Shown here in pieces: positions 30,856 through 36,835 of a stretch of DNA of 36,835 nucleotides. The DNA is from Promethearchaeia archaeon. GTDB taxonomy: Archaea; Asgardarchaeota; Lokiarchaeia; Sigyniarchaeales; SOKP01. The position numbers and the translations under genes are program-made. Positions within the stretch are counted from its first letter, which is position 1, and each line of letters opens with the position of its first letter. The notes under the pieces were generated by a model. The model was given only the letters and a program-made list of their open reading frames with translations. It was not told the DNA's origin and searched no databases. Location of the stretch: positions 1 through 36,835 of the forward strand of contig JAHQWJ010000061.1 of NCBI GenBank assembly GCA_029856125.1, given 5' to 3'.

Positions 30856-31737
30856 ATGTCCAAAGCAGCGAAAATTCTTCCCGATCTAGAGAAGGAAGAC
30901 CTAAGAATTTTAATGGCAATTGAGATCGGTATGAAACGATCAGAATTTGTTACAATAAATAACATTAAATTCTATTCAAGGTACCTTATGGAAGAGACTT
31001 TATTTCGTCTTAAAAAGGTTCATAAATTAGATTTAATAATAAGAGATTCTTCTAAAAACGAAGTAGGCTATACTCTCAATTCAGTTGGTTATGATGTCTT
31101 AGCTCTTCATGCCTTAGTAGAAAAAGAGATAATTGGACAATTAGGACCATTGATTGGAAAAGGAAAAGAATCAGATGTTTATGGATGTATGGATGATAAT
31201 GGGAATATCTTCGCATTAAAAATTTATCGAATTGGGAGAACTAGCTTTAAAAGCATTAAAAGGCTAAGGAGCTTCCTTGGAAATCGAAAACACGCGTCTT
31301 GGTTGTATGTAAATAGACTTGCTGCTAAAAAAGAATATGACGCACTAAACAAGATTTATGAACTTAAATTAGACACACCCAAACCAATTGGGTTTAATAG
31401 ACACATAATAGTTATGTCTTACTTAAGAGGAAAAGAATTAGCCTATCATAGCAAAATTAAAAACCCAATTAAAATGTTTAACAAAATTATCAAGCAAGTT
31501 AAAATAATTTACCAAAAAGCAAAAATGATACACGGAGATCTTGGAGAATTCAATATTGTTGTAGATCATAAAGATAATATCTTAATTATTGATTGGTTAC
31601 AATGGGTTCCTTCAGATCATCCAAATGCAAATTCCCTGTTAGAAAGAGATATAAGAAATGTGTGTAACTTCTTTCAAAAGAAATACCATATAGAAAGCAA
31701 CCCTGTAGAGATTATTCAATCATTTGAAAAAAAGTAA
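30856..31737 (+). CDS. rio2: RIO2-type serine/threonine kinase
   Basis: N-terminal wHTH (AIEIGMK...GYDVLAL), GKGKESDVY, GRTSFK, IHGDLGEFNI, IDWLQ. Confidence 0.93.
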   Translation: MSKAAKILPDLEKEDLRILMAIEIGMKRSEFVTINNIKFYSRYLMEETLFRLKKVHKLDLIIRDSSKNEVGYTLNSVGYDVLALHALVEKEIIGQLGPLIGKGKESDVYGCMDDNGNIFALKIYRIGRTSFKSIKRLRSFLGNRKHASWLYVNRLAAKKEYDALNKIYELKLDTPKPIGFNRHIIVMSYLRGKELAYHSKIKNPIKMFNKIIKQVKIIYQKAKMIHGDLGEFNIVVDHKDNILIIDWLQWVPSDHPNANSLLERDIRNVCNFFQKKYHIESNPVEIIQSFEKK

Positions 31738-31872
31738 ATTTGGAATTAATGCTTATTTATAGTTACTATTCTGGATTCGTCTGGACATCCTCTCTGTTGA
31801 CCTGTAACTAAAGGTTTTGATCATTACATATAGACAATAGTCAAATTGAATTTTATAATCTGACATTATAAA

Positions 31873-32751
31873 TTAACTATAATTATGGTCCGCGATAATT
31901 AATACCTGATGTTCTGGAACAAGGGGTTCACTAATTCCAACATATTTATTTTCAATTACATTAAATCCATATAATTTCAGAATTTTTTTCCATCCTTCCA
32001 GCTTAAGAAAATTAAGAGGTACATTGATATCTTCGTCTCCAATTACTCGATTGTAAAACCAATCAAAAAAACTATTAGTCATACTTATATCATCTTCCTC
32101 AATATAGGCTTCTATAATTACTAAGCGTTTTTTGGTTATTCTCGTTGCTTCCTTCAATAGATGTTCGGGGTCACTCGCATGATGCAACACAGTATATAAA
32201 ATAGTAGTATCTACTTCCCCATCTGCTAAAGGTATCTGTTCCTCTGGATTATATAAGATTAATGGTAAGTCTGTATAATTATAATCCACAATATCAACCA
32301 GTACGACTTCTTTCTTAAGTTGTTTTTTTATTTCTAACGCTAAAAGACCATCTCCCGCACCAAGATCAAGTATCTTCTCTCCTACGATGTAGTCTTCTAC
32401 TAATTCAAAACTCCTTTTTACACGTTTAATTGCATTACCCTTTCGATCTTTTTCATTATCGACGCGTTTTCTGAGAAACTTTCGCAGTGTTTCTTCAACC
32501 TTAATAAGAGGTATTCCTTTTTTCAGGCCTTTAGTTATGGTTCTGTTTACATATAACCAAAAAATATATCTTTTAAGAAAATTTAGATTAGCATTTTTCA
32601 TGGCAGATAAAAATAATGACTGGATCTCATTCCAATAGTGCTTGTTTTTTTTGTTTTTCTTAGAAAATACTGGATATATGAGATCTTCCACAACATCTAT
32701 ATCGTTTTGATTAGTAGGTTTGTAAAATTTAATTATATCTTCTTGAATCAT
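31873..32751 (-). CDS. Class I SAM-dependent methyltransferase with N-terminal extension
   Basis: ILDLGAGDG, VDIVDY, VLHHASDPEHLLKEA. Confidence 0.88.
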   Translation of the reverse strand: MIQEDIIKFYKPTNQNDIDVVEDLIYPVFSKKNKKNKHYWNEIQSLFLSAMKNANLNFLKRYIFWLYVNRTITKGLKKGIPLIKVEETLRKFLRKRVDNEKDRKGNAIKRVKRSFELVEDYIVGEKILDLGAGDGLLALEIKKQLKKEVVLVDIVDYNYTDLPLILYNPEEQIPLADGEVDTTILYTVLHHASDPEHLLKEATRITKKRLVIIEAYIEEDDISMTNSFFDWFYNRVIGDEDINVPLNFLKLEGWKKILKLYGFNVIENKYVGISEPLVPEHQVLIIADHNYS

Positions 32752-32779
32752 TTATTTGTCATAATCATTTAATTTTTAA

Positions 32780-32803
32780 ATAAGTGAGTATTTACTCACT
32801 TAT
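32780..32803. promoter_or_regulatory. Palindromic operator 1 (putative TetR site)
   Basis: ATAAGTGAGTA-TT-TACTCACTTAT: perfect 11-bp arms between the divergent methyltransferase and TetR genes. Confidence 0.8.
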
Positions 32804-32810
32804 AAAATTT

Positions 32811-32826
32811 ATGAGTAATTACTCAT
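32811..32826. promoter_or_regulatory. Palindromic operator 2 (putative TetR site)
   Basis: ATGAGTAATTACTCAT perfect palindrome sharing core TGAGTAnnTACTCA with operator 1. Confidence 0.8.
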
Positions 32827-32840
32827 TTAATATTATTATA

Positions 32841-33455
32841 ATGTCAAGCAAAAAATTTTCACGAAATAAACAAGAAAAAATTAACAAGATTTATGATACA
32901 TTTTTTAAACTAATTTTAAATCAAGGATATCACAAAACAAGCACAAATCATGTTGCAAAATCAGCTAAGATTAGTATTGGTACGATTTATAAATATTTTC
33001 CGAAAGGGAAAGAAGATATTATAAGAAAATATTTTGAAGAATCGATGGAAACTTTTTTGGATAGTCAGAATTTAAGTAACATGAATGAAGAAAATATAAG
33101 AGATTCTCTCAATCATTTTGTTTTAGATTTATTTAAAAATCACGAGGAAAATAAAGGATATAATCTAGCTTTTAGGTCCGCTATACAATCTGATAAAATA
33201 TTGCATAATGCACACAAAGAGAAGATTTTAAATATTTTTAAAGATAAAGTGCAGAAATTAAGGAAGACAAATGAAAATTTGAAACAAATATCCGAGAAAA
33301 GATTAGTCGATGTATTTATCTTCTTGTATAATCTTGTTAATGCGATTATATATCATCATTTATCTGTAATGGAATTATTTGATACAGATGATAAATTTGT
33401 TGAATATCTTTCAAATTTAGTAGCTTTTTCATTAAAGTATTATCTTAAAACGTAA
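32841..33455 (+). CDS. TetR/AcrR family transcriptional regulator
   Basis: GYHKTSTNHVAKSAKISIGTIYKYFP HTH; ATG 32841 preferred because upstream starts fall within the operators. Confidence 0.92.
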   Translation: MSSKKFSRNKQEKINKIYDTFFKLILNQGYHKTSTNHVAKSAKISIGTIYKYFPKGKEDIIRKYFEESMETFLDSQNLSNMNEENIRDSLNHFVLDLFKNHEENKGYNLAFRSAIQSDKILHNAHKEKILNIFKDKVQKLRKTNENLKQISEKRLVDVFIFLYNLVNAIIYHHLSVMELFDTDDKFVEYLSNLVAFSLKYYLKT

Positions 33456-33466
33456 CGGAAAAGCTT

Positions 33467-34087
33467 TCAAATGTTTCCCTCAATAATGTTATTTTTATTT
33501 AGACTACCTTGAATAATCACATCTTCTATATTCTTTAAAAACTCAGTTTTAAGGTCTATTGTAAGTGTTTTTAAATATGCTATTAAATCATCTACTTTCA
33601 ATTGTTTTCGTAAGATTGATAACTTTAAAAGCGAATTCTTCCGACCAACTCGAATTAATTCACCCAAACCTTTCTTTATGACTGGTAAATTTTGGAGCGA
33701 TGTGATTGAAAAAATTACATTAAAAGTATCTTGTCTTAGCGGTAAGTTTTCGATATCTCCTAAAATTAGATTTATATCTTCAATATCTTTTATTTTTTTA
33801 GATTTGTCACAAAAGTTCATTAGCATTTTCCAAGAAATATCTATTCCAATATATTTGACCTTCTTCTTTAGATTATCGATATTTAAGTTAAAAACATGTT
33901 CAATTAATAGGCCTGTACCACAACCAGCATCTAGAATGGTTTTATAATTTAAATTACAATTTCTAAAAAGAATTTTATACTTTTCTTTTTGGATTTTACG
34001 ATATCTATCATCATAAAAGCTTGCAGTTGAATTATATTTGGCGATAATATTTTTTTTTCTCTCTGAATCTTTAGTTGGAGGTTTCAA
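33467..34087 (-). CDS. Class I SAM-dependent methyltransferase
   Basis: YNSTASFYDDRY, ILDAGCGTG, GIDIS, GDIENLP. Confidence 0.9.
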   Translation of the reverse strand: MKPPTKDSERKKNIIAKYNSTASFYDDRYRKIQKEKYKILFRNCNLNYKTILDAGCGTGLLIEHVFNLNIDNLKKKVKYIGIDISWKMLMNFCDKSKKIKDIEDINLILGDIENLPLRQDTFNVIFSITSLQNLPVIKKGLGELIRVGRKNSLLKLSILRKQLKVDDLIAYLKTLTIDLKTEFLKNIEDVIIQGSLNKNNIIEGNI

Positions 34088-34180
34088 TATTCTTAGAAAG
34101 GTTTTAATTGAAAAAAGTTTTTCTTTAAATTATCTTTTTAATAATAATAATATATATGTTTTTTTAATAAGTGATAAAGA

Positions 34181-34435
34181 ATGTCAAGTCAGAATAATAG
34201 AAATAAGAACCCTTTAAATATATTACAGGCCGCTCAAAACAGTCAAATCTTGCTCAGATTAAAAGATGGTACAGAATACAAGGGTTTATTAAAAGAGATC
34301 GATGCTTACATGAACATGATTCTAGAAAATGCTACGGAAATCATGGACGGCAGCCCTGTGGCAAAATACAACGAGATTTTTATACGCGGGAATAATCTGC
34401 TGTTTATAAAACCAGATGCTTCTCAAATTATGTAA
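34181..34435 (+). CDS. Sm/LSm-family RNA-binding protein
   Basis: Sm1 EYKGLLKEIDAYMNMILEN and Sm2 EIFIRGNNLLFI. Confidence 0.95.
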   Translation: MSSQNNRNKNPLNILQAAQNSQILLRLKDGTEYKGLLKEIDAYMNMILENATEIMDGSPVAKYNEIFIRGNNLLFIKPDASQIM

Positions 34436-34449
34436 GTTGAGAGCAAAAA

Positions 34450-34893
34450 TTGAAAATTAGCAACACTCCAGATTCTAATTTCATTTCAGTTATTGGTTAT
34501 GGTACGTTCATAACCCGTGGTCTTTGGAAAAATAAATTCAATGTTGAAGTGTGCACTGTAATTAATTATTCAAGGATTTTCCCCGGAAATAACTGGTTCC
34601 CTTACGCGTTAAAATCAGCTGGCTCATTTAAAGCGTTAAAATTTGATGTTACTAAAGAAGAAATATATTTCTTGGATAAAATCGAAGGCGTAAACAACGG
34701 CTTGTTTAAACGAGTAATGGTTGATATTTTATTAAAAAATAATCGGCCCTCGTCTGCTTTTATGTACGTTCCTACTGAAGAGACGATAGTTTCTCAAAAA
34801 TTAGCTTTAGAATCAGACAAAATTGATCGATGGAAAGAGAAAATCAAGAAGATACCAGAAGTTGTAAGAAAATTTCCCGATTTGTTCACATGA
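34450..34893 (+). CDS. Gamma-glutamylcyclotransferase (AIG2-like) family protein
   Basis: GYGTF, FPYAL, LDKIEG...LFKR, AFMYV. Confidence 0.8.
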   Translation: MKISNTPDSNFISVIGYGTFITRGLWKNKFNVEVCTVINYSRIFPGNNWFPYALKSAGSFKALKFDVTKEEIYFLDKIEGVNNGLFKRVMVDILLKNNRPSSAFMYVPTEETIVSQKLALESDKIDRWKEKIKKIPEVVRKFPDLFT

Positions 34894-34947
34894 TTAAGAG
34901 ATAATCTTTGAAACTACAATTTTATTCCAAATATTTGAATATGATGC
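34894..34947 (-). pseudogene. Remnant of PPP phosphatase 3' end
   Basis: Reads ASYSNIWNKIVVSKIIS* versus ASYAIIRNKTVTPKIIS* of the intact gene (35632-35685), colinear without gaps. Confidence 0.8.
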
Positions 34948-35000
34948 AAATCAGCTAAATATATAAAAACTTTGACAATAAAAACAAAAATTCATCTCTC

Positions 35001-35375
35001 TTAGGGATAGTATATTCCAGGAGGATGTAATTTATGTTGACACTGTTGATTAAACGTATAACAAGGCTCGCAATACCATGCATTTAAAACAGGGTTGTAT
35101 ACTAAATCCAAATCTCTCCTACCGCACAAACTACAATGAACAACCGAACGGGAAAAATGAAGCTTCAATTTTTCGCTTTCAAAATATATTCTCAGATTTT
35201 TTTCTTTCTTTTCGGCGTAATTCAGCGATTCGTCGTGCCTAACGGTATCCATTTCTTTAATATATCTCGAATAATGAAGCTCAAATGCCTTACAAAGCAG
35301 ATTTCTTAATTCAGTTCTAATTTTGCGCAATCGAGGATCTTTAAGTGTGATTAATCGTTTTTCCTTTTTTCTCAT
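35001..35375 (-). CDS. Hypothetical protein with C-terminal CxxC...CxxC zinc finger
   Basis: Basic helical N-terminus, CSLC-x17-CEPC. Confidence 0.75.
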   Translation of the reverse strand: MRKKEKRLITLKDPRLRKIRTELRNLLCKAFELHYSRYIKEMDTVRHDESLNYAEKKEKNLRIYFESEKLKLHFSRSVVHCSLCGRRDLDLVYNPVLNAWYCEPCYTFNQQCQHKLHPPGIYYP

Positions 35376-35431
35376 AATTTAATAATAAAAAAATTAAAAT
35401 TTAAGCTTTATTCTCTTAAAAAGGCATCTGG

Positions 35432-35549
35432 GATTCTAGAGAACGCAACTGAAATCATGGATGGTAGCCCAATGGCGAAAGACAACGAAATTTTTATATG
35501 TGGTAATAATTTACCGTTTATGAAACCAGACGCTTCCCAAATTATGTAA
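35432..35549 (+). pseudogene. Diverged remnant of Sm/LSm gene 3' half
   Basis: 118 nt ungapped match to 34318-34435, 20 mismatches by manual count (15 synonymous, 5 non-synonymous); ILENATEIMDGSPMAKDNEIFICGNNLPFMKPDASQIM*. Confidence 0.92.
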
Positions 35550-35563
35550 ATTGAGAATATTCA

Positions 35564-35631
35564 TTGAGAAAAAACATTTTACTATATTCTGATTTCATTT
35601 AAGTTGAAATATTCCCAATCTATTTACATGA
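35564..35631 (+). pseudogene. Internally deleted GGCT remnant
   Basis: TTG at the same 15-nt offset after the Sm stop as in the intact locus; ATTCTGATTTCATTTAAGTT vs ATTCTAATTTCATTTCAGTT (5' part) joined to GAAATATTCCCAATCTATTTACATGA vs GAAAATTTCCCGATTTGTTCACATGA (3' part). Confidence 0.75.
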
Positions 35632-36528
35632 TTAAGAGATAATCTTAGGTGTCACAGTTTTATTTCTAATAATTGCGTACGATGCAGGAATTATGGGTAC
35701 CGTACCTCGATAATTAGCCGAAGAAAAAATTGACAGCAATCGTTTGTTAAAAAACCACTTGTAACCCTCAGGAAACCTTTCATGAGCTCTTATTAAGTAA
35801 TCTAATTTGTTTTCTCGCATAAAATCTGTAAATACATCCTTTCCAAAGAATTTTATATCTTTTCCCCTAAAACTTTCCGTAAAGCCTTTTAGATTGGGTT
35901 TAGGATCGTTCCACATAATTTGAAGTAGACTTTTAGCTGTGTTTTCAAAAGTCCAATTAATTTCTGATGTTTTAGTACCTCTTAATCTATTAATAGCATT
36001 AATATCCTCTGGAATGCCACCATGAAGACATAATATGGATTCATTAACTAAAACACAATAGGGAAGTGCGTTGTATATAGCTTCAACTTGGTTAAATTTC
36101 TTAGGGTCCTTAAATCGTTTCAGAAAATCTTGAAAAAACCCATAATTCTTATTAACTTCTAAGGTTTCGTGGTTCCCCCTTAGAAGATAAAATTTATTAG
36201 AATCTTTAATTTTCAATGCTAGGACCAAAATAAGACATTCTAACTGATATAAACCACGATCAACGATATCACCTAAAAAGATAACATATTTCGGGTTCTC
36301 TGGTTTGATGATTTCCACCAATCTCATCAAACTTTTCAAATCCCCATGGAGATCTCCAATTACAATTACTTTCTCATGTGGATATTTTTGCTTTAACTCC
36401 AATATTATAGTTTCTTCTCTAAACAGCTTAACTGCTTCACGAAAAACTAAACTAAGCTGATCAAAATCTAATTTAGTTATTAAGTATGGATTTTTTATTA
36501 TATTATTTAGGAATGATTGTTCTATCAA
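35632..36528 (-). CDS. PPP-family serine/threonine protein phosphatase
   Basis: GDLHG, GDIVDRG, LRGNHE, LHGGI, MWNDP, IRAHE, IFSSANY. Confidence 0.95.
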   Translation of the reverse strand: MIEQSFLNNIIKNPYLITKLDFDQLSLVFREAVKLFREETIILELKQKYPHEKVIVIGDLHGDLKSLMRLVEIIKPENPKYVIFLGDIVDRGLYQLECLILVLALKIKDSNKFYLLRGNHETLEVNKNYGFFQDFLKRFKDPKKFNQVEAIYNALPYCVLVNESILCLHGGIPEDINAINRLRGTKTSEINWTFENTAKSLLQIMWNDPKPNLKGFTESFRGKDIKFFGKDVFTDFMRENKLDYLIRAHERFPEGYKWFFNKRLLSIFSSANYRGTVPIIPASYAIIRNKTVTPKIIS

Positions 36529-36692
36529 TTTTCACATATGATTAAATGGTGCTATTTTAAAAATCTCTAATAACAATATCGTTATTTTAAAATTAATATC
36601 TTACAGTTTTATAAATAAAGGCTATGATTATAAAAGTAGATATAATAAAAGCCTTTAATGAAATGATTTCTAAATCGGTTTACTGAAAAATT

Positions 36693-36835
36693 TTGCCATA
36701 TAAAAGCACTACTTTTACCTTAGAATCGGTAATTAAGAATTTCGAAGAAAAAAGAATTACTGAAAAAATCAATACCCGCAATCGAGGGGTAATATATACA
36801 CCTCAACCGATTGCTGATCTAATGGTATTAAATAT
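36693..36835 (+). CDS. Probable N6-adenine DNA methyltransferase / type IIG R-M protein, 5' part only
   Basis: From TTG 36693: MPYKSTTFTLESVIKNFEEKRITEKINTRNRGVIYTPQPIADLMVLN..., containing the G-x-x-YTP-x-x-IA motif X; truncated by the window edge. Confidence 0.6.
   Translation, partial: MPYKSTTFTLESVIKNFEEKRITEKINTRNRGVIYTPQPIADLMVLN

Follow-up and report, generated by a model that had tools for sequence, protein, structure and literature searches.

A truncated copy of an Sm gene end marks a probable between-lineage recombination that inserted a small zinc-finger gene in a Lokiarchaeia genome

The end of an Sm gene occurs twice in this Lokiarchaeia genome, once as part of an intact gene and once as a severed piece on the same strand, which raises the question of how the second piece came to lie there and from which lineage it descends. 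In the window, by which we mean the whole stretch of 36,835 nucleotides that was analysed, the intact Sm/LSm gene encodes 84 aa (34181-34435, + strand; PF01423 LSM, E 3.7e-21, residues 14-78) and has orthologues in 39 of the 41 relatives searched. The second copy, hereafter the remnant (35432-35549, + strand), is a 5′-truncated Sm 3′ half of 118 nt that holds codons 46-84 and the stop. It represents only the Sm2 part (codons 46-84) and not a complete Sm protein; no usable start precedes the Met at 35457, and the invariant Arg of the I-R-G motif is lost. We argue below that the remnant is the scar of a between-lineage recombination that inserted a small zinc-finger gene, ORF124. Relatives are designated by genome handles (G), with contigs (C) and loci (L) where needed.

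The usual gene order in the genus is methyltransferase(-), Sm(+), ORF147(+), phosphatase(-), and the remnant is part of a longer direct repeat of this region. Repeat unit A (34318-34948, + strand), delimited by repeat search and alignments, comprises the Sm 3′ half, an intact ORF147 and a 55-nt dead phosphatase 3′ end. ORF147, a GGACT/AIG2-like gene (34450-34893, + strand; PF06094, E 5.7e-5), is whole only in this unit, and the dead phosphatase piece that forms its tail (34894-34948, - strand) aligns with 35632-35686. Repeat unit B (35432-35686) comprises the remnant, leftovers of ORF147 (35550-35631, + strand; the first ~42 nt and the last 26 nt, with ~376 nt missing) and the real phosphatase end, contiguous with the intact calcineurin-like phosphoesterase, hereafter phosphatase (35632-36528, - strand; PF00149, E 1.8e-31). 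The repeat thus exceeds the extent given in the sequence-only reading: 34318-34491 matches 35432-35605 and 34868-34948 matches 35606-35686, so that the stretch duplicated in both units starts at Sm nucleotide 138 and ends 55 nt into the phosphatase end. The arms are of equal extent and in direct orientation, and each interrupted gene is present once intact and once truncated: Sm is intact on the left and truncated on the right, the phosphatase truncated on the left and intact on the right, and ORF147 intact on the left and deleted on the right. Both units contain a perfect 21-nt direct repeat, ACATGATTAAGAGATAATCTT (34888-34908 and 35626-35646), and they are separated by an insert of 483 nt (34949-35431). 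An Rfam scan of 33400-36835 gave nothing relevant. Further right, an ORF running off the contig end (36693-36835) bears the motif TPQPIADLM typical of N6-adenine DNA methyltransferases and is syntenic in relatives.

Aligned without gaps, 35432-35549 differs from 34318-34435 at 20 of 118 nt (15 transitions, 5 transversions), with no indel; 15 of these differences are synonymous and five replace an amino acid (V>M, Y>D, R>C, L>P and I>M), exactly the counts made beforehand from the sequence alone. The R>C codon bears one synonymous and one replacement change, and one Leu codon two synonymous changes. All five replaced residues, including the IRG arginine whose loss had been pointed out, are invariant across the 36 genus orthologues read. 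The Nei-Gojobori method yields Sd 15, Nd 5, dS 1.61 and dN 0.057. As a model of a decayed local duplicate, we let one copy drift neutrally beside a neighbour under selection, with a transition bias of 1 to 10; the synonymous share expected under this model is 35-46%, versus 75% (15/20) observed (P 0.0003-0.008).

The 20 differences divide in a telling manner. Nine are private to the remnant (five replacement and four synonymous, a neutral-decay ratio), six are private to the intact Sm and all synonymous, and five fall at sites where functional alleles of sister species show both states. The derived codons GAG-AAC-GCA are common to the remnant, G048, G049 and G056; the intact copy reads GAA-AAT-GCT, like G010 and G007. 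Counted across 102 nt, the remnant shows 11 differences to G049, 12 to G056, 14 to G048 and 19 to the intact copy beside it; it is 87-90% identical to these three alleles versus 83% to its neighbour. The synonymous excess, the split into private and shared differences and the allele affinity together indicate that the remnant descends from a different functional allele, as had been claimed, and not from local decay. A simple decayed local tandem duplicate is accordingly rejected, by the synonymous excess and by the nearest alleles being those of G049, G056 and G048 instead of the neighbour's, even though the AU test described below allows a sister relation between the two copies. Judged from these substitutions, the remnant would have been the working 3′ half of some Sm gene until it was severed from its 5′ half, with about nine neutral hits since. 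Nor is there a second intact Sm paralogue in the genome from which it might instead derive, the alternative source that had been named; the sole other match is a 26%-identical paralogue on C126.

The remnant is less decayed than the other dead pieces, with replacement changes at 5/91 replacement sites versus 16/76 in those pieces (Fisher p 0.004 against the ORF147 leftovers). The 5′ leftover of ORF147 in unit B shows private changes at 14/56 positions. To the right of the 21-nt repeat, the dead phosphatase piece of unit A has private changes at 8/40 positions, versus 1/40 in the functional copy. This order fits the remnant being the most recently orphaned piece, the last to lose function. The sequence-only reading had proposed a long phase of purifying selection followed by brief neutral decay in this genome. 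The two-phase history is supported, with nine private neutral hits on the remnant against six private synonymous changes on the intact copy, but "brief" holds only in a relative sense, as a private change of 7.6% is on the scale of the species splits in this group.

We then consider the relatives. Over the upstream 30 kb this genome groups with G048, G010, G007, G049 and G056, the closest being G048 (94-95%). None of these five carries the insert or the remnant: their empty sites read Sm-ORF147-phosphatase in G010, G007 and G048, and Sm-phosphatase in G049 and G056. ORF147 is syntenic after Sm in most of the genus and absent in G049, G056, G023, G009 and G002. Unit B is colinear with the ORF147-less loci of G049 and G056 across the deletion point (87% over 35432-36835), with deletion edges that differ from theirs by ~6 nt. 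In G049 and G056 (L064, L065), the first ~42 nt and the last ~25 nt of the deleted ORF147 are almost unchanged; the deletion there therefore looks recent, unlike the strongly diverged leftovers of unit B.

A tree of 36 taxa on 102 nt did not resolve the position of the remnant, and a tree forced to unite the remnant with the intact copy is worse by 6.65 log-likelihood units (AU p 0.33). With 11 taxa and 194 nt (the Sm half plus leftovers), the remnant falls within its own seven-member species group with support 97/99; the best tree joins it to G049+G056 weakly (40/70), and the sister constraint gives AU p 0.089. The expected grouping with the allele of another species is seen as this weak join, while the sister relation to the intact copy stays unrejected because alignments of 102-194 nt are too short to resolve the trees within the clade. 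A comparison with 42 genomes from the genus and a single metagenome scan yielded no allele closer to the remnant than that of G049, at 89.8%. With so low a best match and trees of this kind, the donor is not identifiable, and the assertion that it could be named from the sequence does not hold; the source of the remnant lies within its own species group instead of a distant lineage.

The unrejected sister relation gives some room to a partial duplication in situ at the time of the ORF124 insertion, followed by decay of the remnant, in which case the synonymous excess would have arisen when the intact copy was later converted or replaced, or while both copies stayed complete and functional for a long time. 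As the locus recombines heavily, a later replacement of unit A is conceivable. However, this account faces the synonymous excess itself. It also predicts only about two synonymous changes on the intact copy for nine neutral hits on the remnant, whereas six private and five shared-polymorphic ones are seen. Moreover, no relative carries two Sm copies at this locus, and unit B is devoid of ORF147, with leftovers that look much older. We consider it improbable. Of the synonymous changes, whose mapping to the intact copy had been set down as a sign of local origin, six are private to the intact copy and four to the remnant.

The insert contains a single intact gene, ORF124 (35001-35375, - strand), which encodes a small basic protein of 124 aa with two CxxC pairs (CxxC...CxxC). 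It has no match in Pfam or PHROGs, and a pattern scan of IMG/VR found no relative. With a dN/dS of 0.19 versus G016, ORF124 is under purifying selection; it is a member of a multi-copy family that reaches up to 10 copies per genome in the genus. The left insert end carries the last 8 codons (DANQLNI and the stop) of a G016/G020-type Sm gene (34943-34966, + strand), and the whole insert, this foreign end included, aligns colinearly, at 82.5% identity, with the interval between the Sm end and ORF124 in G016. At the left junction, J1 (~34948), the phosphatase end and the Sm end share a GATGC microhomology; the right one, J2, is at 35431/35432. No recombinase or integrase is encoded in or adjoining the insert (Pfam, PHROG), and no integrase domain is found in the larger G016 insert either. 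That insert, 3.4 kb at the Sm end, contains ORF124, a 371-aa ORF, a 120-aa ORF and a TPR protein. In the metagenome contig Ga0114923_10043198, ORF124 adjoins ORF147 in another orientation.

Could the two arms have been brought together by the assembler, as a chimera of two strains or species co-occurring in the metagenome? The assembly comprises 153 contigs with 6% estimated contamination, the contig ends 300 nt past the phosphatase, and the window is a mosaic with a tract 95-100% identical to G020, all of which would be compatible with such a chimera. A scan with ORF124, however, recovered the JGI metagenome contig Ga0209979_1003153, in which the parts follow one another in the same order, both junctions recur and the remnant matches at every base, in a different flanking context: another methyltransferase gene stands at its left, and its outer flanks are 3-10% diverged from this genome. 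The region 34319-36040 is nearly identical between the two, except for the centre of ORF124 (15%). An independent contig of identical structure indicates that the scar is not an assembly artefact. In addition, the remnant and the phosphatase fragment bear disabling private changes that are foreign to any intact genome piece, and we regard a chimera as highly improbable. The divergent centre of ORF124 (35079-35316; ~15%, 36 sites), with 750 nt to its left and 700 nt to its right identical in both contigs, looks like a conversion patch inside the cargo gene.

Partial duplicates also flank members of the ORF124 family elsewhere, at the Sm locus in three lineages, at a GTPase locus in G052 and at an actin-like locus in G051. 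Such loci are only three of the ~17 examined: no flanking duplicates occur within 1.5 kb at 12 other ORF124-family loci, nor at the second copy in this genome (C93). An independent parallel is G052 (C282; L062 1177-2038 and L136 3327-4188): a Roc-type GTPase gene comes first, then, on the opposite strand, an ORF124 homologue, and after it a 5′-truncated end of the same GTPase. This GTPase remnant corresponds to the last 150 nt of the gene and is 82% identical in nucleotides to the intact end (Sd 15, Nd 6, dS 1.46, dN 0.06). This remnant, like the flank on either side of it, is 95-96% identical to G056, G010, G048 and G000, and the intact end resembles those of G003 (94%) and G007 (92%). By these affinities, the G052 remnant is the resident end and the intact end an import that arrived with the cassette. 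Note that G052 thereby offers, at 95-96%, an allele much closer than the spread within the group, as is not the case for the Sm remnant.

In G015 (C16; L106 9790-10330), an ORF124 pseudogene with two in-frame stops lies between Sm fragments; the flanking pieces are a G002-type Sm codon 67-83 stretch, a decayed 75-nt copy of the ORF147 start and Sm codons 45-57. The Sm fragment on the side of the ORF124 promoter starts at the same GATTCT as the remnant in the window and resembles G015's own Sm; it has the same Arg-to-Cys codon (TGT) as that remnant. G051 (C170; L038 636-1012 and 2018-2394) has an ORF124 homologue between an actin-like gene and a 132-aa truncated N-terminal copy of it (70-73% nt identity), which may be either a scar or an old paralogue. 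In the G020 group (L013, L078, L015, L014, L081 and L082), Sm ends in ANQLKI and the stop, and TCTTAAATTATGTAA, a relic of the SQIM-stop end of other groups, is found ~50-60 nt past the Sm stop, directly before the conserved ORF147 spacer; this relic points to an older 3′-end replacement of Sm at the same gene. A single origin of the junction in G000, G015 and the G020 clade, based on a "CATCT" relic, was also considered: local alignments there score no better than shuffles, and such an origin is only suggestive.

Our preferred reading, to which we give an even chance, is that the Sm-ORF147-phosphatase locus holds an insertion-duplication scar whose arms are two alleles of one species group. 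A small cassette, which would have carried ORF124 and, at its left end, the last codons of the Sm gene of a third lineage, would have recombined into the locus and produced two overlapping copies, different alleles of the same species group, unit A with ORF147 and unit B without. Direct arms of equal extent, with one intact and one truncated copy per gene, are the layout that Campbell-type integration produces; the presumed route is such an integration of a circle with host homology, or else a homology-anchored illegitimate joining of linear DNA. The divergence between the arms may then guard the insert against loss by recombination between them; this would plausibly account for the strong divergence of the arms in surviving scars, since near-identical ones would recombine and delete the insert.

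Which arm is the resident one bears on the claim of an inter-species transfer. The remnant may be the original end of the resident gene, pushed aside by a substitute 3′ half that came with the cassette; on our analysis the odds of this are about even, and the direction is favoured by the G052 GTPase locus, which shows it. The sister relation to G048 that is seen upstream is absent both in unit A and in unit B plus the phosphatase, and the Sm gene of G048 is G049/G056-like, so that G048 itself looks recombinant at Sm. G048 was tried as a proxy for the backbone and failed for these two reasons, and resident and immigrant are hence indistinguishable at this locus.

In the opposite direction, the remnant would have come with the ORF124 cassette from a species devoid of ORF147. 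The resident sequence would then comprise the intact Sm gene, ORF147 and the 55-nt dead phosphatase end, with the crossover at or right of the 21-nt repeat. The ORF147-less state of unit B, as in G049 and G056 whose Sm alleles are also the nearest, is in keeping with this, as are the foreign Sm sequence at the other end of the insert and the perfect 21-nt repeat, a plausible crossover point. It would place the decay in the wrong order, however, since decay is further advanced in the phosphatase piece of unit A and in the ORF147 leftover than in the Sm remnant. It also runs counter to G052, where the remnant is the resident allele, to G015, where the fragment right of the junction resembles that genome's own Sm, and to the best "donor" match of only 89.8%. 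We judge this direction rather unlikely. The proposed transfer between species is therefore retained as a scar of between-lineage recombination, with a direction that is probably the reverse of the one first proposed, the remnant being perhaps the resident piece as in G052.

The parallels to our preferred reading suggest a broader conjecture, which we put forward tentatively and consider on balance doubtful, namely that the ORF124 family constitutes a kind of very small, recombinase-less cassette, undescribed so far, in Lokiarchaeia. Such cassettes would spread between species by providing a working 3′-end replacement for a conserved host gene (Sm, Roc-type GTPase, perhaps actin-like) and leave the native end beside it; diverged ends would block excision, which would explain the saturated synonymous but little replacement divergence of every surviving remnant.

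The Sm locus with its surroundings is a recombination hotspot. A 2.3-kb tract at ~31,700-34,000, with genes for a 292-aa methyltransferase, a TetR-type regulator and a 206-aa methyltransferase, is 95-100% identical to G020, which belongs to a different species group from this genome, with flanks at ~80%. Neither of its first two genes occurs at this position in the genome's own species group or in Ga0209979_1003153, and the tract may have been imported very recently or may reflect a switch in the local assembly. If it is an import and not an assembly switch, near-identity to a more distant species would mean ongoing gene flow in the genus. The Sm remnant itself is a dated, sequence-level record of recombination between related Lokiarchaeia (Asgard) species at a core gene of RNA metabolism. 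A family of small zinc-finger genes repeatedly sits at such scars, and, should the pattern hold, this would be an integrase-free entry route for accessory genes. For Asgard phylogenomics it matters that a core gene like Sm can combine two lineages in one chimera.

How does the scar compare with known systems? Asgard genomes harbor integrated elements with short attachment motifs, and small cysteine-rich zinc-binding proteins are encoded in variable hotspots of some Asgard viruses (PMC11529989). The published Asgard mobile elements are kilobases long and encode tyrosine integrases or other replication genes (PMC11529989; PMC8813620). The insert described here, by contrast, is 483 nt long with one small gene, and the pattern scan gave no IMG/VR match. 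Beyond Asgard archaea, tRNA-gene islands and archaeal SSV-type and pNOB8-type integration involve elements that insert at the 3′ end of a gene and bring a substitute for that end. As with these elements, the target gene is intact on one side, the 5′-truncated displaced end lies on the other in direct orientation, direct repeats of the 3′ part of the target bound the insert and relatives have empty sites. In contrast to them, the scar is without an integrase, no recombinase is present in the element and the target is a protein-coding Sm gene; in place of a short identical core, the arms measure 255-631 nt and are 17-25% diverged, and other ORF124-family loci hit different host genes.

In Campbell-type insertion-duplication, as in integrative plasmids and insertion-duplication mutagenesis, a circular DNA with a piece of the host recombines into it. 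The scar resembles this in the direct duplication of carried homology that flanks the insert (34318-35686), with one functional and one truncated copy per gene, and differs from it in that the arms come from different alleles and that the circle is only presumed; moreover, whereas a Campbell-type crossover falls at random, the apparent crossover is at one extreme of the arm in G052 and possibly in the Sm scar too. Homology-facilitated illegitimate recombination in natural transformation combines one homologous anchor with one microhomology joint, and usually deletes or replaces recipient DNA, seldom leaving overlapping duplicates of equal length to the left and right. The GATGC microhomology at J1 and the foreign DNA beside a homologous tract are as expected from this process, but the Sm scar does keep such duplicates. 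Its nearest known counterparts are 3′-end-replacing integrative elements, Campbell-type insertion-duplication and homology-facilitated illegitimate recombination, with each of which the Sm scar shares a part of its architecture.
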